Assembly (NCBI GenBank): GCA_049303675.1
Contig: JBAQNJ010000001.1
Coordinates: forward strand, 408,711 to 472,710
Direction of reading: 5' to 3'
Source: Microgenomates group bacterium
GTDB taxonomy: Bacteria > Patescibacteriota > Microgenomatia > UBA12405
Length of the DNA: 64,000 nt
Part shown: positions 1-59,841 of the stretch, in pieces
How positions within the stretch are numbered: position 1 is the stretch's first letter
Layout: every line of letters begins with the position of its first letter
Position numbers and translations under genes: made by a program
Notes under the pieces: model-generated
Databases searched by the model: none
What the model saw: only the letters and a program-made list of their open reading frames with translations
Told to the model about the DNA's origin: nothing

Positions 1-450
1 GGGGCTTCACTCTCGGGTAAAACAACCCTTGTAAAATATTTGCGCTCTCTAAAAGTTGACTGTTCCGAAATCGACGAGGAGTTGACCCTCCAAAACGGTG
101 GTACCTATCCTACTGACATTAATCAGAAGCACCTCGAATTAATCCCCAAAATTATCAAGGATTTGTTATCCCAAAAACAGGCACTTTTTTTTACCAATAC
201 CGATTATTTTACCCTTGACGATCTCCGCCTCGCCCGTTCATCAGATTTCAAAATATATTTATTGGATATCAATTTGCCAGAATTAGTTAAACGAAACAAG
301 TATCGTATGGAACATGAAAAGTATGAGGATATGTCGCCATGGTTAGAGGATATGGTTGATTACCAAAATGATCTCAAAAAATCAGGTCTCGTCGACAAAA
401 TCATCGACGCCACCCTACCTGTTGAAGATCTTGCTAAAATCATTCTATGA
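1..450 (+). CDS. P-loop NTPase / nucleotide-kinase-like protein, 5' end lies outside the window
   Basis: Frame 1 from nt 1 reads GASLSGKTTLVKYL (Walker A, GxxxxGKT) in frame with track ORF 40..450. No start codon within the window. Confidence 0.5.
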   Translation, partial: GASLSGKTTLVKYLRSLKVDCSEIDEELTLQNGGTYPTDINQKHLELIPKIIKDLLSQKQALFFTNTDYFTLDDLRLARSSDFKIYLLDINLPELVKRNKYRMEHEKYEDMSPWLEDMVDYQNDLKKSGLVDKIIDATLPVEDLAKIIL

Positions 451-1190
451 TTACTGACTCCTATCAAAAAATATTCGAGGATAAAAAAAGAATTTTAGTT
501 GTTACCGCCCACCCCGATGACCTCGAGCTTTATTGTGGTGGATTAGTTTCTCGGCTGATTGCCGACGGCAAAATGGTCAGATCGGTCAAAGTCACTAGCG
601 GTGACATGGGCTCCCGACTAATCAAAGTCACCCCAGAGGAGCTTCGAACTATTCGTGAGCGAGAAGACTCCGCTGCCATGAAGACACTTGGAATTACATC
701 TAAAAACAACATTTTTTTACATGTTATTGATGGCCAAGTTGAAAACAGTCTGGAAAATATTGGCAAAATTGCCCAGCAAATTCGTCTTTTCCAGCCGGAC
801 CTGATTATCACTCACAACCCCATCGATCCCGTTATCCGTTTTGATGCGGATAATAGTTGGTTCAATCATCGAGATCATCGCGCCACCGGCCAGTTGACCC
901 TCGACGCCGCCTATCCTTACTCCCGCGATATATTATTTTATCCAGAGCATTTTAATGATCCACTCGCCCAGTCTTGGGCCTGTACCGAATTTTTGATCGT
1001 CGACTCCTACGCCGATCAAGACAGCATTTTTATTGATGTCACTGACCATGTTGCCAAACGGGTCGAAGCTCACGCTTGCCACTCATCACAGTATTCAGTT
1101 GAAGCCGCCCAAGAATCAGCCGATTTTTTTACCAAGCAGTGGGATAAAGATAAGAACTACGAAACCTTTCGCCATGTCATCGTTGATTAA
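447..1190 (+). CDS. PIG-L/LmbE family N-acetylglucosaminyl deacetylase
   Basis: VVTAHPDDLELYCGG motif typical of LmbE/PIG-L deacetylases; 247 aa. Confidence 0.7.
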   Translation: MITDSYQKIFEDKKRILVVTAHPDDLELYCGGLVSRLIADGKMVRSVKVTSGDMGSRLIKVTPEELRTIREREDSAAMKTLGITSKNNIFLHVIDGQVENSLENIGKIAQQIRLFQPDLIITHNPIDPVIRFDADNSWFNHRDHRATGQLTLDAAYPYSRDILFYPEHFNDPLAQSWACTEFLIVDSYADQDSIFIDVTDHVAKRVEAHACHSSQYSVEAAQESADFFTKQWDKDKNYETFRHVIVD

Positions 1191-1202
1191 CACATTTACT
1201 AA

Positions 1203-1231
1203 TTGACAACACGTACGTAATCACGTACCAT
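1203..1231 (+). promoter_or_regulatory. sigma70-like promoter (TTGACA-N17-TACCAT) with inverted repeat GTACGT-N4-ACGTAC in the spacer; likely TA operator
   Basis: TTGACA at 1203-1208, palindromic ACGTACGT / GTACGTAATCACGTAC in the spacer, 6 nt upstream of the antitoxin ATG at 1237. Confidence 0.4.
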
Positions 1232-1236
1232 ATATT

Positions 1237-1500
1237 ATGAACCTTCAATCATATACAGCCAGTGATGCACGGAAACAACTTTATACTCTAATTAAAACCG
1301 CTGCATCCGGCTTAGCTCCAATCGAAATTAATTTACTTCATACAGATCCGGTAATCATGATGTCCAAGGCCGACTACGAATCATGGTTAGAGACCCTCGA
1401 TATAATGTCCTCCCCAGAAGAAATTAAGGCCATTAGAGCAGGTAGAAAGAGTCGAAAATTGGTATCCCATGCCCAAATGAAAAAACAGTTTGGTATATAA
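1237..1500 (+). CDS. Phd/YefM family antitoxin
   Basis: N-terminus SDARKQLYTLI is typical of YefM/Phd. 87 aa. Overlaps the downstream toxin by 11 nt. Confidence 0.7.
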   Translation: MNLQSYTASDARKQLYTLIKTAASGLAPIEINLLHTDPVIMMSKADYESWLETLDIMSSPEEIKAIRAGRKSRKLVSHAQMKKQFGI

Positions 1501-1753
1501 TCTTCTTGTGGAAATAGTATTTGAAAATCAAGCTATCAAGCAGTTGAAAAAAATACCTAAGGCTGAAATAAGAAAGATTAACTCAAAAATAGAGAAACTA
1601 TCCCAAAATCCGCATATTGGCAAGCGACTTCAGGGAGAATTGATAACTCTATTTGCGCTTCGAGCTTGGCCCTACCGGATTTTATATGAGATTGAAAAGA
1701 ACAAAATAATCATTTGCTCCATTGGCCATCGGCAGGGAGTATACAAAAAATGA
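1490..1753 (+). CDS. RelE/ParE family toxin
   Basis: 87 aa with C-terminal ICSIGHRQGVYKK, matching the RelE/ParE HRKDIY-type motif. Translationally coupled to the upstream antitoxin. Confidence 0.7.
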   Translation: MVYNLLVEIVFENQAIKQLKKIPKAEIRKINSKIEKLSQNPHIGKRLQGELITLFALRAWPYRILYEIEKNKIIICSIGHRQGVYKK

Positions 1754-1758
1754 CAAAG

Positions 1759-1792
1759 TTATGAAACCTTCCGCCATGTCGTCGTTGATTAG
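1759..1792. repeat. Imperfect direct repeat of the PIG-L gene 3' end (copy of 1157-1190)
   Basis: 1161-1190 versus 1763-1792 are 27/30 identical. The second copy still encodes YETFRHVVVD-stop in the original frame. Confidence 0.8.
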
Positions 1793-2285
1793 TCGGCCAG
1801 CCAGTTTGTCAGACCTAGACATTATTTCGGAGATAGTTTTCTCCTGTGCCACTCGCCTTGCGGATCGCCACTATCCCGATTGGTCTAATTATTACACCAT
1901 CGATCGGTTAAAAGAAAAACTAGAAAAGCAAATTGTCTTTTTGTTTTATGAAGACAATCTCGCAATTGCGGTCGTTTTTTTATCAGACAATGATCTTTAT
2001 TATTATTCCAAAATTGATGTAGCCAAGTTCGCCAATCCGAAGGCTAAAGGGATCTATATCAGTACCCTCTCTGTTCGACCAGAGTGTCAGGGTAGGGGCA
2101 TCACCAGTCAGATAATAAGTTTTTGTGAAAAATATACTCTCCAAAATGACGGTAAATATTTACGCCTCGATTGCTTTGGAGAAGATGAATTATTGGTGAA
2201 TTTTTACAAGAAAAACGGATTTGTAGTTGTCGGCCCCATGTCTGAGGAACCCAAATATTTATTAATGGAAAAACCCCTCACCTAA
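1762..2285 (+). CDS. GNAT family N-acetyltransferase
   Basis: QGRGIT motif (GNAT acetyl-CoA binding Q/RxxGxG/A). Track ORF begins at 1722; the ATG at 1762 is more likely. Confidence 0.65.
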
Positions 2286-2315
2286 TTTTTCATCAATATA
2301 TTACAATAGGTAAAT

Positions 2316-3230
2316 ATGAAAATATATCTGGTTGGACCAGAAAAAGAATATCTTTACTCAGTAGAAGAACTTAATAAAGTCGGTAACGTTGTTTATGTAA
2401 ATAATTTATCGGAAATATTTTCCGATCCAGACGATAAAATATTGGGTATTGCTCCAGGTGTTATTGATTGGAAATTTCCACTAGAAGATCTTAAGAAGAT
2501 TCAGAATTTAAAAGGTATCTGTACCAAGTCATCTTGGGGTTTTTATATTGATATCGAATATTGTCGCCAAAATAATATTCACGTATGCAATGTCCCAGGT
2601 GCCAACTCTCGCTCTGTTGCTGAGTATGCATTTTGGATGATGCTGTCTCTTGCCAGAAAATTACCCCAGCAAATCAGGGATAGTTTCCAAATCCATGAAT
2701 CTGACAATTTACATGTTGAAATAAGCGACAAAAAAATCGGTATTATTGGACTTGGTAAAGTTGGTGGTCATCTTGCCAAAATGGCGCAGGGTTTTGGTAT
2801 GGAAGTATGGTATTCAGGGCGCAGTCCCAAGAAAAATTCCTACAAGTATTCCCCAGTCGAAGATCTATTAAAAAATTGTGATTTTATTTTTGATTGTCTC
2901 GAAAATTGTCCTGAGACTCAAAACTATTTAAATAAAGACAGACTTAGTTTGATGAAATCATCTGCCTATTTCATAAGTGTTATGGGCGGCGCTGGTTGGG
3001 GAGTTGAAGATGACGAATTTTTAGTTCAAATGGTTCAAAACAATAAACTGGCTGGTTTTTCGATCGAGAATGAGCACAAAGGCAACTTTCCTAAGAAATT
3101 CGATGGCAATATTTTTATTCCCCCTGCATATGCTTGGAAAACTGTTGAGGCTCAAGATAGAACCAACAAAATATTTACCGAGACTATCGTCGGTCTTGCT
3201 ACTGGTAAAGTTATTAATGTAATTAAATAA
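2316..3230 (+). CDS. D-isomer-specific 2-hydroxyacid dehydrogenase family, NAD-binding
   Basis: KKIGIIGLGKVGGHLAKMAQGFGMEV Rossmann GxGxxG motif; 304 aa. Confidence 0.65.
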   Translation: MKIYLVGPEKEYLYSVEELNKVGNVVYVNNLSEIFSDPDDKILGIAPGVIDWKFPLEDLKKIQNLKGICTKSSWGFYIDIEYCRQNNIHVCNVPGANSRSVAEYAFWMMLSLARKLPQQIRDSFQIHESDNLHVEISDKKIGIIGLGKVGGHLAKMAQGFGMEVWYSGRSPKKNSYKYSPVEDLLKNCDFIFDCLENCPETQNYLNKDRLSLMKSSAYFISVMGGAGWGVEDDEFLVQMVQNNKLAGFSIENEHKGNFPKKFDGNIFIPPAYAWKTVEAQDRTNKIFTETIVGLATGKVINVIK

Positions 3231-3232
3231 AT

Positions 3233-4213
3233 ATGAAAATAAAAGTCACCGAACTCACCCAGCTTACCTTATCAGCTCTCAAAAAGTATGGCTATTCAGA
3301 TAATGAATCAGCCATAATTTCTAGAGTTCTATTATTCGCCCAACTCAGGGGCAACAATCAAGGTGTCGTCAAACTAATTGGCAAAGGCATACCTCGTCGA
3401 CCGGAGGGGCAAGCACCAATCAATATCAAAGACACCCCTGTTTCTGCCCTAATTGATGGCAATGCCACTCACGCGATTATTGTCATGGATCAGTTGGCAA
3501 ATATCGCCATCGATAAAGCCAAAAAATCAGGAATAGGACTAGTTGGTAGCTTTAATACTTCGGAGTCAACTGGCATTTTAGCCTATTATGTCGACAAAAT
3601 TGCTCGTGCTGGATTCATTGGTCTGGCATTTTCCTCTGCCCCATTCCAAACTACTGCCCCTTTTGGTTCCACCGAGGCTCGTTTTTGCACCAATCCTTTG
3701 GCCTATGGTGTCCCCACCAATTCGGATCCCATTCTATTTGATATGACCACTTCTGCTATGGCCTATTATGGACTGATAGAAGCGAAAACGGCCGGTAAAG
3801 ATGTCCCAGAAAACATAGGTTTTAATTCAGAAGGACAGCCAACTACCAACCCAGCCGAAATCATGGGTGGAGCGTTGCGAACAATAGCTGGACACAAAGG
3901 ATCAGGTCTTGCACTTCTAGTTCAAGTTCTTTGCGGACCTCTTGTTGGTGCCGATTCGTTTAACAGCAATAGTCACAATGCCGGTAATTTTGTTATCGCC
4001 ATCGATCCAAGTTTATTTACACCGACTGATGAATTCAAAAACAGAGTTGCCGATGTCGCCACTAAAATAAAATCAGCTCGAAAAATCAATGGAGTCGATG
4101 ATATATTGTTGCCAGGTGAACGCGGTACTCAATTACAAAAACAAAATATAGATAATGATGAGCTCGAAATTGGTGACAATCTATTAGCTGAGTTACAAAA
4201 AGTAGCTCCATAG
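3233..4213 (+). CDS. Ldh_2 family malate/L-lactate/sulfolactate dehydrogenase
   Basis: Ldh_2 family (AllD/ComC-like) signature including GHKGSGLALLVQVL; 326 aa. Confidence 0.6.
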   Translation: MKIKVTELTQLTLSALKKYGYSDNESAIISRVLLFAQLRGNNQGVVKLIGKGIPRRPEGQAPINIKDTPVSALIDGNATHAIIVMDQLANIAIDKAKKSGIGLVGSFNTSESTGILAYYVDKIARAGFIGLAFSSAPFQTTAPFGSTEARFCTNPLAYGVPTNSDPILFDMTTSAMAYYGLIEAKTAGKDVPENIGFNSEGQPTTNPAEIMGGALRTIAGHKGSGLALLVQVLCGPLVGADSFNSNSHNAGNFVIAIDPSLFTPTDEFKNRVADVATKIKSARKINGVDDILLPGERGTQLQKQNIDNDELEIGDNLLAELQKVAP

Positions 4214-28132: not shown

Positions 28133-29746
28133 GTGATAATATTATCCATGTCTCCAGTTACCACAGTCAAAATAACCGGTCCGGCTGGCGCTGGTATCAA
28201 AAGTAGTGGACTCCTCTTTTCCAATATGCTTTTGGCTCATGGTCAAAATCTGCGCGATTATTCCGAATACCCCTCTCTCGTTCGCGGTGGCCACAACACT
28301 TATCAGGTCAGTTTTTCGCCAGGGGAAGTACTTGCCCCCCATTATCAGGTTGATATTTTACTCTCACTTTTGCCCAATCATTGGCAAATGCATAGTTCCG
28401 AGTTGGTAGATGGTTCACTTGTTTTTGGTGAAGATGGCAAAAATATTTTGCCTCTGGCGAATCTGTCCAAGGAATTTGGCAGCCATCTCTATAGCAACAC
28501 TATCGGGTTGGGCGTGATGGTTTTTATTTTGGGTCTCGACAAAACTATCTGTCAAAAAATTGTTGCCGCCAATTATGGTGCGGATTCTCCCAACAACCCC
28601 GCCTTTTTATCTGGCTACACCTATGCTGAGAACAATTTTATGAATTTAAAATTAAATAATTTAGATTTAATTAAAAATTTAAAATTAAAAATTAAAAATT
28701 TTCTCTATGAGGGCAACGAAGCCTTTGGTTGGGGGTTTATTGCCGGCGGGGGCACCTTCTATTCCGCCTATCCCATGACCCCCAGTTCAGGGGCACTGCA
28801 CTTTTTAGCCGCCAAACAGGCAGAATATAAAATCAATGTCATCCATGCCGAGGACGAAATTGCCTGTGCATCGCTCGCTGCTGGCGCTACTTTTGCTGGT
28901 GCCCGGGCCGCTACTGGGACCTCTGGTGGTGGGTTTGCCCTGATGAACGAAACAGTTAGTTTTTGTGGAGCCGCCGAGTTGGGTACCTTATTTTATTTAG
29001 TCTCCCGCCCTGGTCCTGCTACTGGATTACCTACATGGACCGGCCAAGGAGACTTACTATATGCTGTTCATTCTGGCCATGGCGAATTTACCAAAATCGT
29101 CCTCGCCCCTAGTACACAGGCTGAAACATTCGAGTTTGCCTATACCGCCCTCAATTTAGCTGCCCATTTTAATGTCCCGACTATTTTATTATCTGACAAA
29201 TTTATTGCCGAATCAGGTTCTTCTTTACCAGATCTTTCAGTCCAAAAAGTTCCCATTATCAAATCAACTAAAGCAGTCCCAGGTACAGTCGGTTCCGAGT
29301 ATATGGCCAATAGTTACGAACACGATGAAAGTGGTTTTTCTACTGAAGATGCGTTAGTTATCAAAAAAATGGTCGAAAAAAGAATTGCCCTTAGTCAGCA
29401 AATCTCCTTAGTTGCCCCTAAATCTGTTTTATCTGGCTCCGTTTCCGCTCAAGGCCTTATTGTCACTTGGGGTTCGCCTACCCCAGTCATCCAAGAAGCT
29501 CTTCGTTTATCTGGCTCCACCGATTACGCCCTTTTACAAATCCGCACCGTGTGTCCTCTCGATCCTGAACTAGAATCTATTATCAATAAATACAAAAACA
29601 TTATAGTAGTGGAAAACAACGCTACTTCTCAATTGACTCAACTCTTGAAATCTCATTTTAATTTTAATCCCACCAAAACTATTCTCAAATACGACGGTCG
29701 TCCCTTTTTCCCCGAAGAAATAATTAATTTGTTGAATATCAGATAA
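28133..29746 (+). CDS. korA: 2-oxoacid:ferredoxin oxidoreductase, fused gamma-alpha subunit
   Basis: N-terminal gamma domain (VKITGPAGAGIKSSG) and alpha domain (GNEAFGWGFIAGGGTFYSAYPMTPSS...AEDEIACASLAAGATFAGARAATGTSGGG). Confidence 0.8.
   Translation: MIILSMSPVTTVKITGPAGAGIKSSGLLFSNMLLAHGQNLRDYSEYPSLVRGGHNTYQVSFSPGEVLAPHYQVDILLSLLPNHWQMHSSELVDGSLVFGEDGKNILPLANLSKEFGSHLYSNTIGLGVMVFILGLDKTICQKIVAANYGADSPNNPAFLSGYTYAENNFMNLKLNNLDLIKNLKLKIKNFLYEGNEAFGWGFIAGGGTFYSAYPMTPSSGALHFLAAKQAEYKINVIHAEDEIACASLAAGATFAGARAATGTSGGGFALMNETVSFCGAAELGTLFYLVSRPGPATGLPTWTGQGDLLYAVHSGHGEFTKIVLAPSTQAETFEFAYTALNLAAHFNVPTILLSDKFIAESGSSLPDLSVQKVPIIKSTKAVPGTVGSEYMANSYEHDESGFSTEDALVIKKMVEKRIALSQQISLVAPKSVLSGSVSAQGLIVTWGSPTPVIQEALRLSGSTDYALLQIRTVCPLDPELESIINKYKNIIVVENNATSQLTQLLKSHFNFNPTKTILKYDGRPFFPEEIINLLNIR
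28640..28702. repeat. AT-rich repeat (aaattaaaaatt)n inserted in frame at the korA gamma/alpha junction
   Basis: Encodes MNLKLNNLDLIKNLKLKIKNF. The 28-mer aaaaatttaaaattaaaaattaaaaatt at 28673-28700 is identical to 50512-50539. Related copies lie at 29747-29825. Confidence 0.7.
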
Positions 29747-29825
29747 CATACAATATTTCTTTAGATAATTAAAAATTATTAAATTAAAAATTGATTAAAA
29801 ATTTTAAATTAGAAATTAAAAATTT
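29747..29825. repeat. AT-rich (aaattaaaaatt)-type repeat in the korA-korB intergenic leader
   Basis: Several copies of ttaaaaatt/aaattaaaaatt variants. The korB N-terminus MLNLK continues the pattern. Confidence 0.6.
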
Positions 29826-30446
29826 ATGTTAAATTTAAAGTCATCGATTATTCCCACCTGGTGTCCGGGGTGCTATGACTTTATTATGTATCTGGGAATT
29901 GAAAATGCTCTCAAGACACTCGATATCCCTCTTGAAAAAATAGTTATTGTCTATGACATTGGCTGTATTGGTAATATGGCCGATTTTTTCAAAACATATG
30001 CCGTTCACTCTCTTCACGGTCGTTGTATTCCCACTGCTGTAGGTATCAAATTAGCCAATCCAGAATTAACTGTCATTGCTGTTGGTGGTGATGGCGGAGT
30101 CTATGGTGAGGGGATGGGTCACCTTATTGCTTGGGCCAGATCCATTGTGAATATCAATGTCTTTATTTCCAACAACAACGTTTATAGCCTAACCACCGGT
30201 CAAACTAGCCCGACCACTCCCAAGGGTAGCAAGACCAAGTCTACTCCTTTAGGCACTACCAATTTGCCAGTCGATCCAGTCCCGCTGTTAAAAGCTCTCA
30301 ATCCCGACATAGATGCCGTCTCTGTCGATGGTCACAATCCGCCCGAAGTTATCGAAGCCTTCAAAAAAGCCATCCAAAATCCTACTTTTTCTCTCGTCGA
30401 TTGTCGCCAAATCTGCGTTACCTTCGGCAAGCAAATCACTGGCTAG
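29826..30446 (+). CDS. korB: 2-oxoacid:ferredoxin oxidoreductase beta subunit (TPP-binding), short form
   Basis: WCPGCYDF, GIGC-like IGCIGN, GGDGG and NNNVYSLTTGQTSPTTPKGSKT motifs; 206 aa. Confidence 0.8.
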   Translation: MLNLKSSIIPTWCPGCYDFIMYLGIENALKTLDIPLEKIVIVYDIGCIGNMADFFKTYAVHSLHGRCIPTAVGIKLANPELTVIAVGGDGGVYGEGMGHLIAWARSIVNINVFISNNNVYSLTTGQTSPTTPKGSKTKSTPLGTTNLPVDPVPLLKALNPDIDAVSVDGHNPPEVIEAFKKAIQNPTFSLVDCRQICVTFGKQITG

Positions 30447-32085: not shown

Positions 32086-33720
32086 ATGACAAAAACTCTC
32101 AATATTTTTCTTGCCCTTTTCCTTACTACTTTTTCCCTCTCCTATTTTTTAGGATCTAAATTAAACATCTTAGTCCAAGCCCGTGATGAAGAGGATTCTT
32201 CAAATTGTGGCTACACCTGTCCCGTTATCCATTGGACATGGCAAACACGCGAAGTCGACGAAGCCGAGCACTATGAATATACCGACAAAGTAATCGATGT
32301 AGCCGGTCATTATGGTAACTGCCCCAATAATTATTCTGTTTATTCACAAGACAACACAAAATGTCGAAAAAATAATGGTAATCACGAAATAATCAATCGC
32401 CCTTGGGTTGACAGTACCTACAAATGCCCTTCAGGCTACCAGAGCAATCCTGGCCACAGCAATTGTCGTCAGCTTATTGCTACTACCTACAAAAATACCG
32501 ATCATTCGGCTGATGTCGCTTATGAAAAATCGTCAGACGGTAATCACTGTCACCGCCCCTCAGACGATACTCTCGAGGATACCTATGATATGGATCATGA
32601 CACCCGCGAAGATTTCAAAGACGAAAATAGTCAAAACAAAGATGCCACTCCAATTGCCTGTCCTACAGCTACACCAACCACTGCTCCTACTTCAACTCCA
32701 GTCTCAACTTCGACTCCCACCCCTACTCCCACCAGTGAAATAACCAACACTCCCACCCCCACTTCAACCGATGAAACTACCAATACTCCTACTCCCACCC
32801 AATCGGAGCAGTCAACTGGCACCCCTTCTCCCACAGTGACCCCTACCAACTCTCCTCATGTTGGTGGTGATGCTGGATCATCGAATAATAATAGTGCCCC
32901 CACTTGTAATGACTCCGACCCAGGCACTCCCCAAAATCTCCAAGCAATTGCCCTAGGTGGTGGCAAAGTTAAGCTAACTTGGGGCAATGCCTCCGGTCCG
33001 GTCACTTCATATGCTGTTGCTTATGGTCCATCTATCGGCAATTATTTATACGGTGATCCCAATGTTGGCAATGTCAACACTTATACCGTTCTTGCGCTCA
33101 GTCCGGGTGGCAAATATTGTTTCTATGTTCAGGCCCAAAATGGCTGTCGTGGTGGTAGTCCTTCAAATGTGGTTTGTACCAATCAGGGCGCTGGCTCACT
33201 TCAAGTCCTCGGTGCCAAGACGAACTACAATCCCTTAGTCGACGGCATTCGCCAGAGCTATGGCGGTTTGGTCTTAGGTACTTCAACTGAATTAATGGCC
33301 ACTGCTGAAGTTGTCTATTCAACTGAAAAACTACCCTCAGGCAATACTCTCGATGAGACTAAATCCATTAGTATTCCTAAAATCGGCATAACTCAAGCTA
33401 TCTATCATCCCCAAAAAATCGGTGATGATTTGACTGTTGGTCATAGAGAAGTTCTAAAAACCTCTCTCAATGGGGCCACAGTTTACTATGGACACAATGG
33501 CTATGATGTCTTCGGGTCACTTTATCTTCTCCGAGTTGGTGATGCTATTAAGTTACACAGTTCCGGTACTGTCTCAAATTATTCAGTCACCTCAACCCAG
33601 TTTGTTCACAAATCAAACGTTGAGGCTATTAAGAGTCAGGGTGATCAAATAGTTTTAGTCACTTGTAGTTTCACCCAACCAGATTATCGCATTATAGTTA
33701 CAGCTTCAATTCAAAAATAA
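32086..33720 (+). CDS. membrane-anchored Cys-rich / Thr-Pro-rich / FN3-like protein with C-terminal sortase domain
   Basis: N-terminal TM; Cys-rich segment; TPTPT repeats; FN3-like PQNLQAIALGGGKVKLTWGNASGPVTSYAVAYGP. C-terminal YYGHNGYDVFGSLYLLRVGDAIKLH...YSVTS...QIVLVTCS...YRIIVTASI matches the sortase GH...GD.I...Y.V...L.TC...R.IV.A pattern. Confidence 0.6.
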   Translation: MTKTLNIFLALFLTTFSLSYFLGSKLNILVQARDEEDSSNCGYTCPVIHWTWQTREVDEAEHYEYTDKVIDVAGHYGNCPNNYSVYSQDNTKCRKNNGNHEIINRPWVDSTYKCPSGYQSNPGHSNCRQLIATTYKNTDHSADVAYEKSSDGNHCHRPSDDTLEDTYDMDHDTREDFKDENSQNKDATPIACPTATPTTAPTSTPVSTSTPTPTPTSEITNTPTPTSTDETTNTPTPTQSEQSTGTPSPTVTPTNSPHVGGDAGSSNNNSAPTCNDSDPGTPQNLQAIALGGGKVKLTWGNASGPVTSYAVAYGPSIGNYLYGDPNVGNVNTYTVLALSPGGKYCFYVQAQNGCRGGSPSNVVCTNQGAGSLQVLGAKTNYNPLVDGIRQSYGGLVLGTSTELMATAEVVYSTEKLPSGNTLDETKSISIPKIGITQAIYHPQKIGDDLTVGHREVLKTSLNGATVYYGHNGYDVFGSLYLLRVGDAIKLHSSGTVSNYSVTSTQFVHKSNVEAIKSQGDQIVLVTCSFTQPDYRIIVTASIQK

Positions 33721-47120: not shown

Positions 47121-48061
47121 TGAGTAAAATATTATTTCAATGGCGTTATCAAATTTTAACAGTAGTTTTTTTGCTACTTTCACTCACCGGTACAATGTAT
47201 TTAGTTGGATATAATCAGGATAATCGAGACAAAGCAGTTGGTAATGACAAGTGTCAGGCTGGCCAAAAATTGTGTCAAGAAAATAAACAGGGTCAAAATA
47301 CCGGCTATCTTTGTGAATGTCTCACCGAGCTAGACCCCAACGATTGGCGCTGCACCACCCAAGATCTAAAAACATGCCCCACCGATAGTGGAGGAGTTGA
47401 TCCCAGTTTTTTTGCTTGTGACCCTCAGGGTAGTATGACTATTGCCGGTCGATGTCTAGTCGCCAAATCAGGATCAAAAATAGATATTGCTTTCAAGTAT
47501 AATTGTCCGGACAAATTTGGGATGAGTAATGGTTGTCAACAAAACGAATCAGTTGTTCAAAATGTCACTAGTGTTTGTTTTGAAAATAATTTTTGTGGCA
47601 CTCAACAAATTGATAGCAAAACAGGCAGCTGCTTCATTAGTGTAGAAGACCATAATGGCTGCAATAATACACCCACAAAGCTACCTTCACCTACTCCCAC
47701 CAAAACACCAGTTCCCACTCGCACACTCACTCCAACACGTACCCCCACCCCAACCAAGACTCCTACTCCTACAAAAACACCTACAATTACGCCTTTTAAC
47801 ACCTCTATTCCTACATATCCAGTTACCAGTACACCAACTCAAGTTGCCACCAACACTCCTACAAATACTCCAACCAATACTCCCACTGGCACTGTTGCTC
47901 CCACAAACACGCCAATGTCTACAAATACCCCGACTGTTATTCCCACTGGACCCAGTCCTACTCGGATAATATTACCCAATGCTGGTTTTGATTTTCCCAT
48001 TCAGGCATTGTCAGTGGTTGGTATAATCACCACACTCTTTGGATTATTAATTCTTCTCTAA
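47120..48061 (+). CDS. secreted Cys-rich / Thr-Pro-repeat surface protein with C-terminal LPNAG plus hydrophobic tail
   Basis: Signal/TM, 16 Cys in the first 170 aa, (TPTPTK)n repeats, and C-terminal RIILPNAGFDFPIQALSVVGIITTLFGLLILL. Confidence 0.45.
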   Translation: MSKILFQWRYQILTVVFLLLSLTGTMYLVGYNQDNRDKAVGNDKCQAGQKLCQENKQGQNTGYLCECLTELDPNDWRCTTQDLKTCPTDSGGVDPSFFACDPQGSMTIAGRCLVAKSGSKIDIAFKYNCPDKFGMSNGCQQNESVVQNVTSVCFENNFCGTQQIDSKTGSCFISVEDHNGCNNTPTKLPSPTPTKTPVPTRTLTPTRTPTPTKTPTPTKTPTITPFNTSIPTYPVTSTPTQVATNTPTNTPTNTPTGTVAPTNTPMSTNTPTVIPTGPSPTRIILPNAGFDFPIQALSVVGIITTLFGLLILL

Positions 48062-48986: not shown

Positions 48987-50487
48987 TTCTGGTTTGTTAT
49001 TTTTTATTGCTTTAATTACCCGATTTTTTGGTTTAACTTGGGGTGGTGGTTTCCCTTTCCATCCAGATGAAAACAACATGGTCAATGCCATTGTGCAAAT
49101 GACCCCTATTAATTTGAATCCTCATTTTTTCGCCTATGGCCAATTTCCCCTATATTTAGGATATATTACCCAGCTAATTCTCGGGTTGCCTCACAACGCT
49201 ATCGCTATTACCTATGTACTCCGTTTCTGGTCAGCCATCTTTTCCACCTTGTCCGTTTATCTTTTTTATCTTATAAACCGGCAACTATTTCCCAAAATAA
49301 ATCCTTTTATTGCCACCTTACTTTTTATATTTACTCCGGGACTCATCCAAATAGCACATTTTGGTACCACTGAGAGTTTGTTGGTTCTTATTTTTTTGTC
49401 GACTATATATCTCTCCCTAAAACTCTATGGTCAGCCATTTCAATACAAATATTATTTTTGGCTAGCTTTAATATGTGGCATTGGAGTCTCTTCAAAACTC
49501 AGCTCCATAGTCTTTATTTTTCCAATATTGTTAGTTTCTCTGATAAGTTTTTTTAAACATAATAAAAAGCTTCATGTAGTTTTTTTTACTTTTTACTTTT
49601 TACTATTTACTTTAGTATTTTTTATATTATTTTCTCCATTCAATATTTTGTCCAGAGCTGATTTTCTCTCAGCCCTTAAATATGAGACCGAAGTCGCCAC
49701 CGGCACATTGTCAGTGTTTTATACTACTCAGTTTAAAAACACTTTACCTTATATATATCAAATAACCCATATCTTTCCATATGTTATTGGACTGCCCCTT
49801 AGTCTATTCTCCTTATTTGGTTTATGTATGTCGTTTAGAAAATATCATCAGTCCCTGTTCATAGTCTATGCCTCAGTTATTTTTTATTTTCTCTATTTTG
49901 GCCAGACATATGTCAAATGGACCCGTTTTATGTCACCTATATTTTTTATATTTCCCCTTATCGCCGCCATCTTTATTAATCAAATCCACTCCAAGAATTA
50001 TAGATATTTTGTTCTGATTGCTGCCATTCTCCCTGGGATATTTTTCCTGAAACTATATCTGTATCCCGATATTAGAATCACCGCTTCAAAATGGATAATC
50101 GAAAATCTACCCGACAAAACAACCATTTTGTCCGAAGGTGGCAATGTCGTCAACATTCCGGTTCTGGAAAATAACTTTGAAATAGACAATTACGACTTTT
50201 ATCAATACCATGTTGACACCTTATCCAAATCTATCGCCAAATCTGATTACATTATCATTCCTTCACGTCGAGTTTTTAAGAATTATAACTATACCTATTA
50301 CCAACATTTATTTGATGGCACACTCGGCTTTTCAAAAATCAAAGAGTTTGTCCCCGACAAATATCTGTTTTTTAATCCAGAAAATGCCGAGGAAACATGG
50401 ACAGTCTTCGACCGTCCTACCATCAGAATTTACCAGAAAACCACTCAACTGTCCCTTGAAGAATACTCTAGTTTATTAGAAAATTAA
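48976..50487 (+). CDS. GT-C polytopic membrane glycosyltransferase (GT39/GT83-like)
   Basis: First loop FHPDENNMVN...NPHFFAYGQFPLY; more than 10 TM segments; paralogue of 50506. Confidence 0.6.
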   Translation: MSFSSGLLFFIALITRFFGLTWGGGFPFHPDENNMVNAIVQMTPINLNPHFFAYGQFPLYLGYITQLILGLPHNAIAITYVLRFWSAIFSTLSVYLFYLINRQLFPKINPFIATLLFIFTPGLIQIAHFGTTESLLVLIFLSTIYLSLKLYGQPFQYKYYFWLALICGIGVSSKLSSIVFIFPILLVSLISFFKHNKKLHVVFFTFYFLLFTLVFFILFSPFNILSRADFLSALKYETEVATGTLSVFYTTQFKNTLPYIYQITHIFPYVIGLPLSLFSLFGLCMSFRKYHQSLFIVYASVIFYFLYFGQTYVKWTRFMSPIFFIFPLIAAIFINQIHSKNYRYFVLIAAILPGIFFLKLYLYPDIRITASKWIIENLPDKTTILSEGGNVVNIPVLENNFEIDNYDFYQYHVDTLSKSIAKSDYIIIPSRRVFKNYNYTYYQHLFDGTLGFSKIKEFVPDKYLFFNPENAEETWTVFDRPTIRIYQKTTQLSLEEYSSLLEN

Positions 50488-50545
50488 AAATTTGTTAATT
50501 AAAAATTGAATAAAAATTTAAAATTAAAAATTAAAAATTATTATC
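50487..50545. repeat. AT-rich (aaattaaaaatt)n repeat forming the leader/N-terminus of the GT-C gene
   Basis: Contains a 28-mer identical to korA 28673-28700. Encodes (TTG)NKNLKLKIKNYY. Confidence 0.7.
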
Positions 50546-59230: not shown

Positions 59231-59817
59231 ATGCCATGGATTAATTATCCATTTAAATTTGAAAAACGGTACCGTCGGGTGGTTGGGATTATTCCAATAA
59301 TGGATATTATTTTATAACAATTTGTACCAAGGATAGGGTGAATTATTTTGGTGAAATTGTTAATAACAAAATGTATTTATCTGAAATTGGTGATCTGGTT
59401 AGTAAATATTGGTGCGAAATACCACATCATTTTAATGATATTAGAATTGATAAATACGTCGTTATGCCAAATCATTTTCATGGAATATTAATCGTAAACA
59501 AAACCAACAATAATGTAGGAACGCATTATAATGCGTTCCTACCAACAGGAATAAAAAACAATGTTGATTTACAACAACCGGCCGTTAACGCTAAATATAG
59601 AGATTTGGCGAATAAATCAATCCAAACAATTCCCTTGGCAATCAAATTATTTAAAAGATCTGTTAAAAAATATGCCAACCAAAACAATATCACCTTTGCC
59701 TGGCAACCCCGATTTCATGATCGGATTATCAGATCAGAAAAAGAATATTGGGCAAAACGAATTTATATTGAGAACAATCCCGAAAATTGGGGGAAAGATA
59801 TTGAACATCTTATGTAG
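59231..59817 (+). mobile_element. IS200-like / REP-associated tyrosine transposase (RAYT, HUH-Y1) gene, frameshifted, carrying a palindrome insertion
   Basis: ATG at 59231 (MPWINYPFKFEKRY, frame 2), then frame 1 from about 59263: GGWDYSNNGYYFITICTKDRVNYFGEIV (RAYT N-terminal signature), VMPNHFHGIL (HuH) and YIENNP (catalytic Tyr). The frameshift lies near 59265-59275. Confidence 0.7.
59515..59542. repeat. 28-bp perfect palindrome GTAGGAACGCATTATAATGCGTTCCTAC (REP-like), copy inside the RAYT coding sequence
   Basis: Identical to 59814-59841. Encodes VGTHYNAFLP within the transposase. Confidence 0.85.
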
Positions 59818-59841
59818 GAACGCATTATAATGCGTTCCTAC
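59814..59841. repeat. 28-bp perfect palindrome GTAGGAACGCATTATAATGCGTTCCTAC overlapping the RAYT stop codon
   Basis: Exact second copy, 299 bp downstream of the first. Confidence 0.85.

Follow-up and report, generated by a model that had tools for sequence, protein, structure and literature searches.

Probable insertion of a toxin-antitoxin cassette with duplication of a PIG-L/GNAT gene overlap in a Microgenomates bacterium

The movement of chromosomal toxin-antitoxin (TA) cassettes without mobile-element genes is still poorly explained. [quoted passage not shown] (in Gene in 2000, volume 259, page 99). RM gene complexes inserted in this way are associated with a direct repeat of more than 30 bp, which in H. 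influenzae likewise extends over a gene's 3' end (Furuta, Abe, and Kobayashi, NAR 2010; PMC2853133). In two TA reviews, the term was encountered in reference lists only. The locus analyzed here gives a before-and-after picture of such a move, with a minimal cassette running from promoter to toxin stop, an empty site in relatives, and an RM-like target duplication. It shares with the RM cases a small addiction-type unit, a direct target duplication of more than 30 bp (33 bp here), the lack of transposase and integrase genes in the insert, and an empty site that carries just one repeat copy in related genomes. The repeat of the RM cases is unique rather than dispersed; here it occurs twice in the window (the whole 64-kb stretch of DNA that was analyzed). 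The locus differs in its cargo, a type II TA pair and not an RM system, such that only the mode of insertion is common to both; in a duplication that matches the functional overlap of two genes to the base, with copies that have since specialized; and in its host, a bacterium of the CPR/Patescibacteria.

Other mobile systems share fewer of these properties. Integrase-borne islands and prophages likewise place foreign DNA between direct repeats of a gene's terminal sequence (33 nt here) and leave that gene intact, whereas the insert in the window, of just 569 bp, comes with neither a recombinase nor arm sequences, the relatives of the cassette bear no att copy of their own, and the downstream repeat is the start of a GNAT acetyltransferase gene, not a redundant terminus. 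Integron TA cassettes are also compact, mobile, promoter-bearing units among unrelated genes, but no integron integrase or attI lies nearby, the 6 nt that follow the toxin stop (CAAAGT) leave no room for an attC site, and integron insertion, unlike the event seen here, produces no 33-bp target duplication. Insertion sequences, transposons, and MITEs carry terminal inverted repeats and make a short duplication of fixed size; no inverted repeats pairing the ends of this insert were found, and none of the other copies of the cassette has the 33-bp duplication.

The features of the locus are the following.

447 to 1190, forward strand: PIG-L/LmbE-family deacetylase, 247 aa (Pfam PF02585, 92.7 bits)
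1158 to 1190, forward strand: repeat copy 1, TACGAAACCTTTCGCCATGTCATCGTTGATTAA, the end of PIG-L (YETFRHVIVD-stop), with the GNAT-frame ATG gone (TAT>TAC)
1191 to 1202, forward strand: left junction spacer CACATTTACTAA, from the PIG-L stop to the -35 box, not conserved in cassette relatives
1203 to 1231, forward strand: promoter-like site (TTGACA, 17 nt, TACCAT)
1237 to 1500, forward strand: Phd/YefM-family antitoxin, 87 aa (Pfam PF02604, 36.3 bits against a cutoff of 29.8)
1508 to 1753, forward strand: RelE/StbE-family (ParE/RelE superfamily) toxin, 81 aa, GTG start (PF05016, TIGR02385)
1754 to 1759, forward strand: right junction spacer CAAAGT, from the toxin stop to repeat copy 2
1760 to 1792, forward strand: repeat copy 2, TATGAAACCTTCCGCCATGTCGTCGTTGATTAG, the 5' end of GNAT (ATG at 1761, MKPSAMSSLI...), with the old PIG-L frame still readable
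1761 to 2285, forward strand: GNAT acetyltransferase, 174 aa from the ATG at 1761 (Pfam PF00583, PF13673, PF13508)

The two copies are spaced 602 nt start to start, with 569 nt between them, and no similarity is seen in the sequence past either end of the 33-bp repeat. They are identical at 29 of 33 positions with the Tyr codon included, and at 27 of 30 over the segment in which an earlier note on this DNA had recognized a duplication of the PIG-L 3' end, which is thereby confirmed, as is its observation that the downstream copy reads YETFRHVVVD-stop in the PIG-L frame. Copy 1 comprises the last 11 codons of PIG-L, stop included, and 60 homologues of this protein conserve the motif (Y/F)ETFR.V..D-stop at the C terminus. 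Beyond PIG-L and GNAT, the neighbors of the cassette are 2-Hacid_dh and Ldh_2 genes.

The insert is a compact Phd/YefM-RelE operon, and the promoter/operator and Phd-RelE pair that the earlier note had placed between the copies were borne out: the site is promoter-like and contains a palindrome, and the pair is made up of a PhdYeFM antitoxin and a toxin of the ParE/RelE superfamily. The promoter, at 10/12, is the top promoter match within positions 1 to 3000. Its spacer holds two GTAC-core boxes (1213 to 1216 and 1225 to 1228; palindrome GTACGTaatcACGTAC), which are presumed to be the antitoxin operator. YefM-type operators consist of paired GTAC-core palindromes 12 bp apart, and the window promoter appears to share this arrangement with Phd/YefM-RelE operons of the YefM-YoeB/RelBE-like kind. 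In an alignment of five cassette relatives, TTGACA and the motif ACGTACGT...CGTAC are invariant. The toxin scores 43.6 bits against Pfam PF05016 (cutoff, 23) and 31.5 bits against NCBIfam TIGR02385, RelE_StbE (cutoff, 27.9).

With its two small genes in the order antitoxin then toxin, the bicistronic unit follows the usual plan of Phd/YefM-RelE type II operons; the relatives found are only 60 to 91% identical to it and all come from uncultured CPR-type contigs. The antitoxin homologues across that range are each 87 aa long, and the toxin homologues, called as 81 aa, start 7 to 8 nt past the antitoxin stop (7 nt in the window). Homology among the relatives ceases at the toxin stop codon, and the conserved unit runs from the -35 box to that stop and no further. 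The insert is by its families a type II TA system combining a Phd/YefM antitoxin with a RelE/ParE-superfamily toxin, in which the toxin would be expected to inhibit growth by ribosome-dependent mRNA cleavage and the antitoxin to neutralize it. With a GC content of 37 to 39% against 30 to 47% nearby, its composition gives no foreign mark, and no paralogue of the cassette was found within the 64-kb window.

Among relatives of the cassette, the closest antitoxin (91% amino acid identity) lies on a 2,655-bp contig of JGI sample 3300075153, which carries PIG-L, ORF195, and Phd and, past an uncalled gap of 262 nt, a gene for a protein of 114 aa. The PIG-L protein of this contig, of 249 aa and probably P0023, is only 70% identical to that of the window. 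The remaining relatives (60 to 72%) follow a Peptidase_M50 gene or a gene for an unknown protein of 226 aa, or lie between other genes. The two closest copies of the cassette are both no more than one gene from a PIG-L gene, and in three independent contexts the TAA stop of the upstream gene precedes the antitoxin ATG by exactly 46 nt.

The earlier note had also treated the downstream copy as a leftover PIG-L terminus, and this fails, as copy 2 forms the 5' end of GNAT. The GNAT protein is 60% identical to its orthologue in L002 over the whole length, N terminus included, and the N terminus MKPSA is common to P0128, P0129, and the reading frame of L026; P0128 begins MKPSATSLLTN, a PIG-L end read in the +1 frame. 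The predicted start of GNAT is the conserved ATG at 1761, with copy 2 as its working 5' end. Translation from an alternative ATG at 1776, the choice of the gene callers in L024 and L025, would give 169 aa.

Three Microgenomates/Shapirobacteria contigs hold the empty site. In L002, L003, and L026, PIG-L is followed directly by GNAT, the 33-mer occurs once, and the TA module is lacking, just as the earlier note had predicted for related genomes, and these syntenic relatives bear out that the cassette is an insertion. Amino acid identity to the window is 79% for PIG-L and 60% for GNAT in L002/L003, and 66 to 67% and 53%, respectively, in L026. In all of them the conserved Tyr-Glu codons of PIG-L contain the GNAT ATG, which gives an out-of-frame overlap of 32 nt between the genes; the 33-bp duplicated segment corresponds to this ancestral overlap plus one base. 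L002, L026, and copy 2 of the window all carry TATGAAACCTTCCGCC unchanged, even at silent sites, and codon identity at conserved residues reaches 8/8 between copy 2 and L026, compared with 0.44 to 0.50 in the body of PIG-L. Sequence comparison thus shows an ancestor whose PIG-L and GNAT genes would have shared 32 nt in different reading frames.

The useful syntenic relatives were obtained through exact-protein look-ups; scans of genome collections and metagenomes with the PIG-L protein returned distant or nonsyntenic loci only (L001 and L010 to L013). A further candidate for an empty site, L014/L015, was rejected since its downstream gene is unrelated to GNAT. In L014/L015, an ATG inside the Tyr-Glu codons is used by, or called for, other downstream genes too.

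When the differences between the copies are polarized with L002 and L026, a pattern consistent with specialization is seen. In copy 1, a T>C change keeps Tyr and removes the GNAT ATG, and a C>T change keeps Phe and would be S>F in the GNAT frame; both derived changes are thus silent in the PIG-L frame and nonsilent in the GNAT frame. In copy 2, an A>G change keeps a Ser of GNAT and amounts to I>V in the PIG-L frame; the remaining difference, the fourth, is between TAA and TAG. For random substitutions, silence in either frame would be the outcome in only 21 of 99. These three polarizable substitutions show a pattern in which each copy would, after the duplication, have kept just the frame that it still served.

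The reading that we favor, with a probability of roughly 0.6, is that the TA operon entered the PIG-L/GNAT overlap and that the 33-bp duplication was made in place, with neither a cassette-encoded nor a site-specific recombinase taking part. As copy 1 completes PIG-L and copy 2 starts GNAT, the insertion would have parted the genes and damaged neither. It can be hypothesized that the duplication was copied from the DNA of the recipient itself as the cassette went in, through staggered-break fill-in or a template switch in repair or replication acting on horizontally transferred DNA; we know of no enzyme that would cut here with a stagger of 33 bp. The survivors would be only those insertions that duplicated the whole overlap, because in these both genes were kept working, and selection of this kind may account for repeat boundaries that match the gene overlap, for which an att site gives no explanation. 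The stop of the toxin gene precedes GNAT by 7 nt, and GNAT translation now probably follows directly on that of the toxin, on transcripts that could come from the PIG-L operon, from an autoregulated TA promoter, or from both. We infer this mechanism from the footprint that the event has left.

The locus is a clean and fairly ordinary footprint of the entry of a TA cassette without transposase or integrase. It also illustrates how overlapping genes can be parted by duplication of their common bases, after which the copies specialize, a small natural escape from the constraint of overlap. As a single event, its value is that of a well-documented example and a search template rather than of a new kind of system.

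It is conceivable, if rather unlikely, that the terminus was instead supplied by a donor, in which case the cassette already lay just behind PIG-L in a related genome, copy 1 is foreign, and copy 2 is native. On one side, homology within or at the PIG-L end would have allowed either a small circle to integrate by a Campbell-type single crossover or a linear fragment to undergo homology-facilitated illegitimate recombination, and on the other side illegitimate joining would have taken place 33 nt upstream of the recipient PIG-L stop. A Campbell-type crossover was one of two routes proposed in the earlier note, and a donor-supplied end may have been acquired in this way or by a one-sided homologous crossover. 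The copies do differ at 4 of 33 positions and, with the nearest PIG-L relative at 79%, these four differences could be original if one copy is donor derived. Copy 1 deviates from the GNAT-bearing relatives exactly where a PIG-L gene without GNAT overlap could vary, and L014 too has TTT at position 12; the same silent pattern would also be expected if copy 1 represents such a donor PIG-L.

That the closest cassette relative also stands beside PIG-L, in another lineage, could hint at targeting or homology-assisted transfer and not random insertion. CPR bacteria commonly encode DNA-uptake genes. Many of the insertions with long target duplication are found in naturally competent species (PMC2853133). 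A donor-supplied end fits poorly, however, with the PIG-L of the window, which both as a whole and in its C-terminal 30 residues is closest to P0002 and not to the PIG-L of the closest-cassette contig; being closest to P0002 throughout, it carries no mosaic signal, and none is seen along PIG-L in comparison with L002. Moreover, in the JGI 3300075153 contig the cassette follows ORF195 and not PIG-L directly, the cassette relatives for which DNA is available hold no PIG-L-like sequence, and the proposal only places the first joining of PIG-L to the TA unit in a different genome.

We consider it improbable that CPR bacteria harbor a class of addiction cassettes, this Phd-RelE unit among them, that lack a recombinase and enter chromosomes at gene ends, perhaps in preferred neighborhoods, by a dedicated long-target-duplication process, the same unexplained process as proposed for RM systems. 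If so, gene-overlap junctions flanked by duplicated overlaps would be a searchable signature of that process.

A TA arrangement older than the lineage of the window, with loss of the cassette from L002, L026, and P0128 through repeat-to-repeat recombination that regenerated the overlap, seems very unlikely. Recombination between 33-bp direct repeats would give precise excision and leave exactly the single-copy overlap of the relatives, but three independent precise losses would be required in place of one gain, and the overlap of the relatives bears the marks of long-term dual-coding conservation. The closest relative of the cassette, at 91% compared with approximately 70% for the host genes, indicates recent horizontal movement. 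An initial insertion with duplication would in any case be needed, and the timing alone would differ.

Slightly less credible again is the other route of the earlier note, attP/attB-like recombination, in which the 33-mer is the att core of a tyrosine or serine recombinase acting in trans and the 602-bp unit is a mobilizable mini-element or island remnant that targets the PIG-L 3' end. Direct repeats of a gene's 3' end around foreign DNA are the classical footprint of an integrase, two cassette relatives lie near a PIG-L gene, and in one of them, L017, two genes upstream there is a gene of the rve family. Nonetheless, no recombinase or other mobile-element gene was found in 1191 to 1759 or in the flanking genes, the insert holding the TA genes alone, and the nonconserved DNA between the conserved cassette and the repeats amounts to just 12 nt and 6 nt, which therefore leaves no room for arm sites. 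Around the cassette relatives at four other loci (L017 to L023), no flanking repeats were found, with weak AT-rich matches staying within the shuffle range (one in L017, for instance, being 24 nt at 79% identity, with a score of 23 against a null maximum of 25), and no PIG-L-like 33-mer was present (best match, 13 to 16 mismatches). Viral contigs scanned for the antitoxin and the 33-mer gave no match. With the repeat, PIG-L-like sequence, and an integrase in the cassette unit all lacking at these four loci, attP/attB recombination is left unsupported. The limits of the repeat coincide with the gene overlap, and any simple crossover inside the 33-mer would need a host site (an attB reading TAC...TTT) that already lacked the otherwise invariant GNAT start codon. 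Of the overall reading in the earlier note, insertion, empty site, and a repeat that is no common motif therefore stand, whereas att recombination finds no support and a leftover PIG-L terminus falls.

That chance or compositional similarity, or an assembly artefact, lies behind the repeat can be dismissed, even though a 14-nt AT-rich repeat at two neighboring gene starts of the same locus proved to be shared start-codon context: the 33-nt copies are not AT rich, a degenerate 33-mer (up to 3 mismatches) has just these two sites in the window and 0 matches in 100 dinucleotide-preserving shuffles, local alignment of the cassette flanks reaches a score of 49 where shuffles attain 27 at most, relatives hold a single-copy homologue at the same place, and three independent assemblies agree, with L024 and L025, from other sequencing runs, identical base for base to the window over the cassette, which rules out an artefact. 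A common or low-complexity motif, which the earlier note had named as what would speak against its reading, is excluded by the same searches. The 14-nt perfect repeat, TAAATATGAAAATA (2310 to 2323 and 3227 to 3240, at the starts of 2-Hacid_dh and Ldh_2), was considered as a second target duplication and rejected; the 2-Hacid_dh orthologue of L016 also starts MNIYLVG, with a similar upstream context, and the repeat is therefore ascribed to a start-codon context that the genes share.

The comparisons presented here show that a minimal toxin-antitoxin (TA) operon entered a functional overlap between a PIG-L and a GNAT gene, that the overlap was duplicated, that both genes survived and that the two copies have since specialised. 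The arrangement of the locus is as follows.

447-1190, + strand: PIG-L/LmbE-family deacetylase gene (PF02585)
1203-1231, + strand: sigma-70-like promoter match, TTGACA-17 nt-TACCAT, the best match in the first 3 kb
Spacer of that promoter match, + strand: GTACGTaatcACGTAC, with two GTAC cores 12 bp apart
1237-1500, + strand: Phd/YefM antitoxin gene (PF02604)
1508-1753, + strand: RelE/StbE-family toxin gene, GTG start, 81 aa as in homologues (PF05016; TIGR02385 above cutoff)
1761-2285, + strand: GNAT acetyltransferase gene
3' of GNAT, + strand: 2-hydroxyacid dehydrogenase and Ldh_2 genes

The cassette is bracketed by direct repeats, copy 1 (TACGAAACCTTTCGCCATGTCATCGTTGATTAA, 1158-1190) and copy 2 (TATGAAACCTTCCGCCATGTCGTCGTTGATTAG, 1760-1792), which match at 29 of 33 positions and begin 602 nt from one another, and the PIG-L 3'-end repeat described in the earlier note (27/30 over its coordinates) is thereby confirmed. 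A degenerate search allowing up to 3 mismatches finds the 33-mer at just two sites in the 64 kb and at none in 100 shuffles, local alignment of the cassette flanks reaches a score of 49, where shuffled sequence never exceeds 27, and the likeness breaks off sharply on both sides. L024 and L025, assembled independently from different sequencing runs, match the window across the region with no differences, which shows that the arrangement is genuine and that the population in question is fixed for it. The host is a Microgenomates-group (CPR/Patescibacteria) bacterium, and a PIG-L protein identical to the window's is also recorded on a 998-kb contig. The copies now share no perfect block longer than 10 nt, so homologous recombination is probably no longer likely to excise the cassette.

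Placing the locus beside its relatives reveals what was duplicated. In the closest relative, L002 (second assembly L003; PIG-L 79% and GNAT 60% identical), GNAT lies directly 3' of PIG-L, the 33-mer is single and TA genes are absent, and the same layout is seen in L026 (PIG-L 66-67%, GNAT 53%), again with one 33-mer and no TA genes; such empty sites, which the earlier note had proposed to look for, favour insertion. In both relatives the GNAT frame begins at an ATG within the PIG-L C-terminal Tyr-Glu codons (T-ATG-AA) and reads through the PIG-L stop, so that the two genes share a 32-nt overlap in different frames. The repeat is this overlap plus one base. The N-terminus of a third GNAT relative (P0128), MKPSATSLLTN, is a +1-frame reading of a PIG-L end, and of the possible start codons only the upstream ATG is common to all four GNAT genes, internal candidates being shifted or missing. 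The PIG-L motif (Y/F)ETFR.V..D-stop is kept in 60/60 homologues inspected. Dual coding in the single-copy state is supported by the invariance of TATGAAACCTTCCGCC in L002, L026 and copy 2, including silent PIG-L sites, and by identical codons at 8/8 conserved residues between copy 2 and L026, compared with 0.44-0.50 in the PIG-L gene body; for copy 1 this identity is down to 5/8 and 5/10.

A non-GNAT gene (190 aa, no Pfam match) in another relative, L014 (1620-2192) and L015 (913-1485), is likewise called from the ATG within the PIG-L Tyr-Glu codons, with the same 32-nt overlap. Gene content 3' of PIG-L varies in nearly every relative examined (GNAT, ORF190, TsaD, a 350-aa ORF, a 61-aa ORF). 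TA modules from more than one family turn up around PIG-L: Shapirobacteria contigs L004-L009 carry, at about 1800-2800, a different Phd antitoxin paired with a PIN-domain toxin, upstream of their PIG-L orthologue by two genes.

Copy 1 now supplies the last ten codons and stop of PIG-L, and GNAT begins in copy 2 (MKPSAMSSLI...). Taking L002 and L026 as outgroups polarises three of the four sites at which the copies differ.

Differences between the copies, by position in the 33-mer
Position 3: copy 1 changed, T>C; silent in PIG-L (Tyr), ATG destroyed in GNAT
Position 12: copy 1 changed, C>T; silent in PIG-L (Phe), S>F in GNAT
Position 22: copy 2 changed, A>G; I>V in PIG-L, silent in GNAT (Ser)
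Position 33: not polarisable, TAA versus TAG; PIG-L stop in both copies, GNAT N (AAC) in copy 1 and S (AGT) in copy 2

All three polarised changes are silent in the frame that the copy still uses but not in the one it has given up, whereas only 21/99 random substitutions are silent in a given frame; such a pattern is to be expected if each copy serves a single gene. As the earlier note observed, the downstream copy still reads YETFRHVVVD-stop in the PIG-L frame, but it is no relic terminus, as the GNAT 5' end depends on it.

We favour a duplication that would have been templated by the recipient itself as the cassette inserted, through staggered-break fill-in or template switch. Selection would then retain only events duplicating at least the whole overlap, which would explain why the repeat edges coincide with the GNAT ATG and the PIG-L stop. 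The main rival, which preserves the Campbell-type crossover (linear or circular form) of the earlier note, is a donor fragment in which a PIG-L end already lay beside the cassette and whose left side recombined homologously, the right side illegitimately, which would make copy 1 foreign. The silent changes fit this donor end as well as in-place duplication, and the evidence against it is confined to two points, namely that PIG-L carries no mosaic signal and that PIG-L-like DNA is absent from other cassette copies. Classical attP/attB integration at the PIG-L 3' end, also raised earlier, is poorly supported, as there is no recombinase, no room for arm sites and no element-borne core found, and crossover within the core needs a host site without the invariant GNAT ATG. 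Neither recombinase nor transposase genes are present in the insert or next to it, and its ends carry no inverted repeats.

Close relatives of the antitoxin number only six in a search of 5.8 billion proteins (60-91% identity, all 87 aa), and their cassettes occupy different contexts.

L019-L022: after Peptidase_M50
L017/L018: after an unknown 226-aa gene, with an rve-family gene near
L023: between a minus-strand polyprenyl synthetase gene and another minus-strand gene
JGI metagenome 3300075153 (2655-bp contig, 91% antitoxin): after ORF195, itself 3' of a PIG-L gene

Homology in a five-cassette alignment runs from the -35 box to the toxin stop codon. The other copies show no flanking repeats and no 33-mer-like sequence (best match 13-16 mismatches), and neither antitoxin nor 33-mer was found in the viral contigs scanned. 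Between the window and the JGI genome, whose PIG-L is probably P0023, the antitoxins are 91% and the PIG-L proteins about 70% identical, a discrepancy that speaks for horizontal transfer of the cassette. In the JGI gene table, that of the closest cassette relative, the unrelated ORF195 shares 32 nt with PIG-L, and its stop, only 18 nt from the antitoxin ATG, falls within the cassette promoter; no toxin is called in the 262-nt gap 3' of the antitoxin. In three independent contexts, namely the window (1188-1237), L017 (3952-4001) and L021 (3516-3565), exactly 46 nt separate the antitoxin ATG from the TAA of the preceding gene on the same strand; in L019 (1366-1405) the distance is 36 nt. The 46-nt span is constant though the stop-to--35 and -35-to-ATG distances each shift by 1-2 nt, one lengthening as the other shortens, and it may result from compaction down to a minimal promoter or mark a defined left boundary of the unit.

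The TA pair itself is an ordinary Phd/YefM-RelE family member. [quoted passage not shown] 2000, as cited there) and recognised by a repeat >30 bp, no mobility genes and a one-copy empty site; in some of those cases the repeat likewise overlaps a gene 3' end (PMC2853133). All three marks are present here, and the locus differs in its TA cargo, its CPR host and a duplication that is exactly a dual-coding overlap. Seven papers use that term and "toxin-antitoxin" together; in two TA reviews consulted it stands only among the references, and we found no application of it to a TA pair proper. The earlier observation is thus upheld and its interpretation supported in part, the locus being a well-resolved case in which an insertion mode already known carries new cargo and has a neat consequence, and not a new kind of system. 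It is improbable that CPR bacteria harbour a recombinase-less class of addiction cassettes with a dedicated route for such insertion, an idea kept alive by the two closest cassettes both lying within one gene of PIG-L and by the 46-nt TAA-ATG spacing in three contexts.

Other repeats occur in the window. A perfect 14-nt repeat, TAAATATGAAAATA (2310-2323 and 3227-3240), stands where two neighbouring genes, for 2-hydroxyacid dehydrogenase and Ldh_2, begin; it was considered as a duplication and judged a shared AT-rich start context, because the L016 orthologue of the former likewise starts MNIYLVG. In L026, Ldh_2 directly follows GNAT with a near-identical upstream context, and such start-context repeats could mediate precise gene loss. 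A 159-aa ORF without Pfam match (59338-59841), followed by GatC and GatA-like genes, contains MPNHFHGIL, which resembles the HUH motif of IS200/RAYT-type transposases, and two identical 28-nt palindromes, GTAGGAACGCATTATAATGCGTTCCTAC, one inside it (59515-59542) and one over its stop codon (59814-59841). A family of very AT-rich AAAAATTTAAAATTAAAAATTAAA-like repeats, in part arranged as adjacent 25-nt units, lies at 28643-28701, 29767-29844 and 50487-50535, and short tandem ACTCC(C/T)AC(C/A)-type repeats at 32713-32784 and 47765-47949 probably code for linkers rich in Thr and Pro within large surface or secreted proteins.
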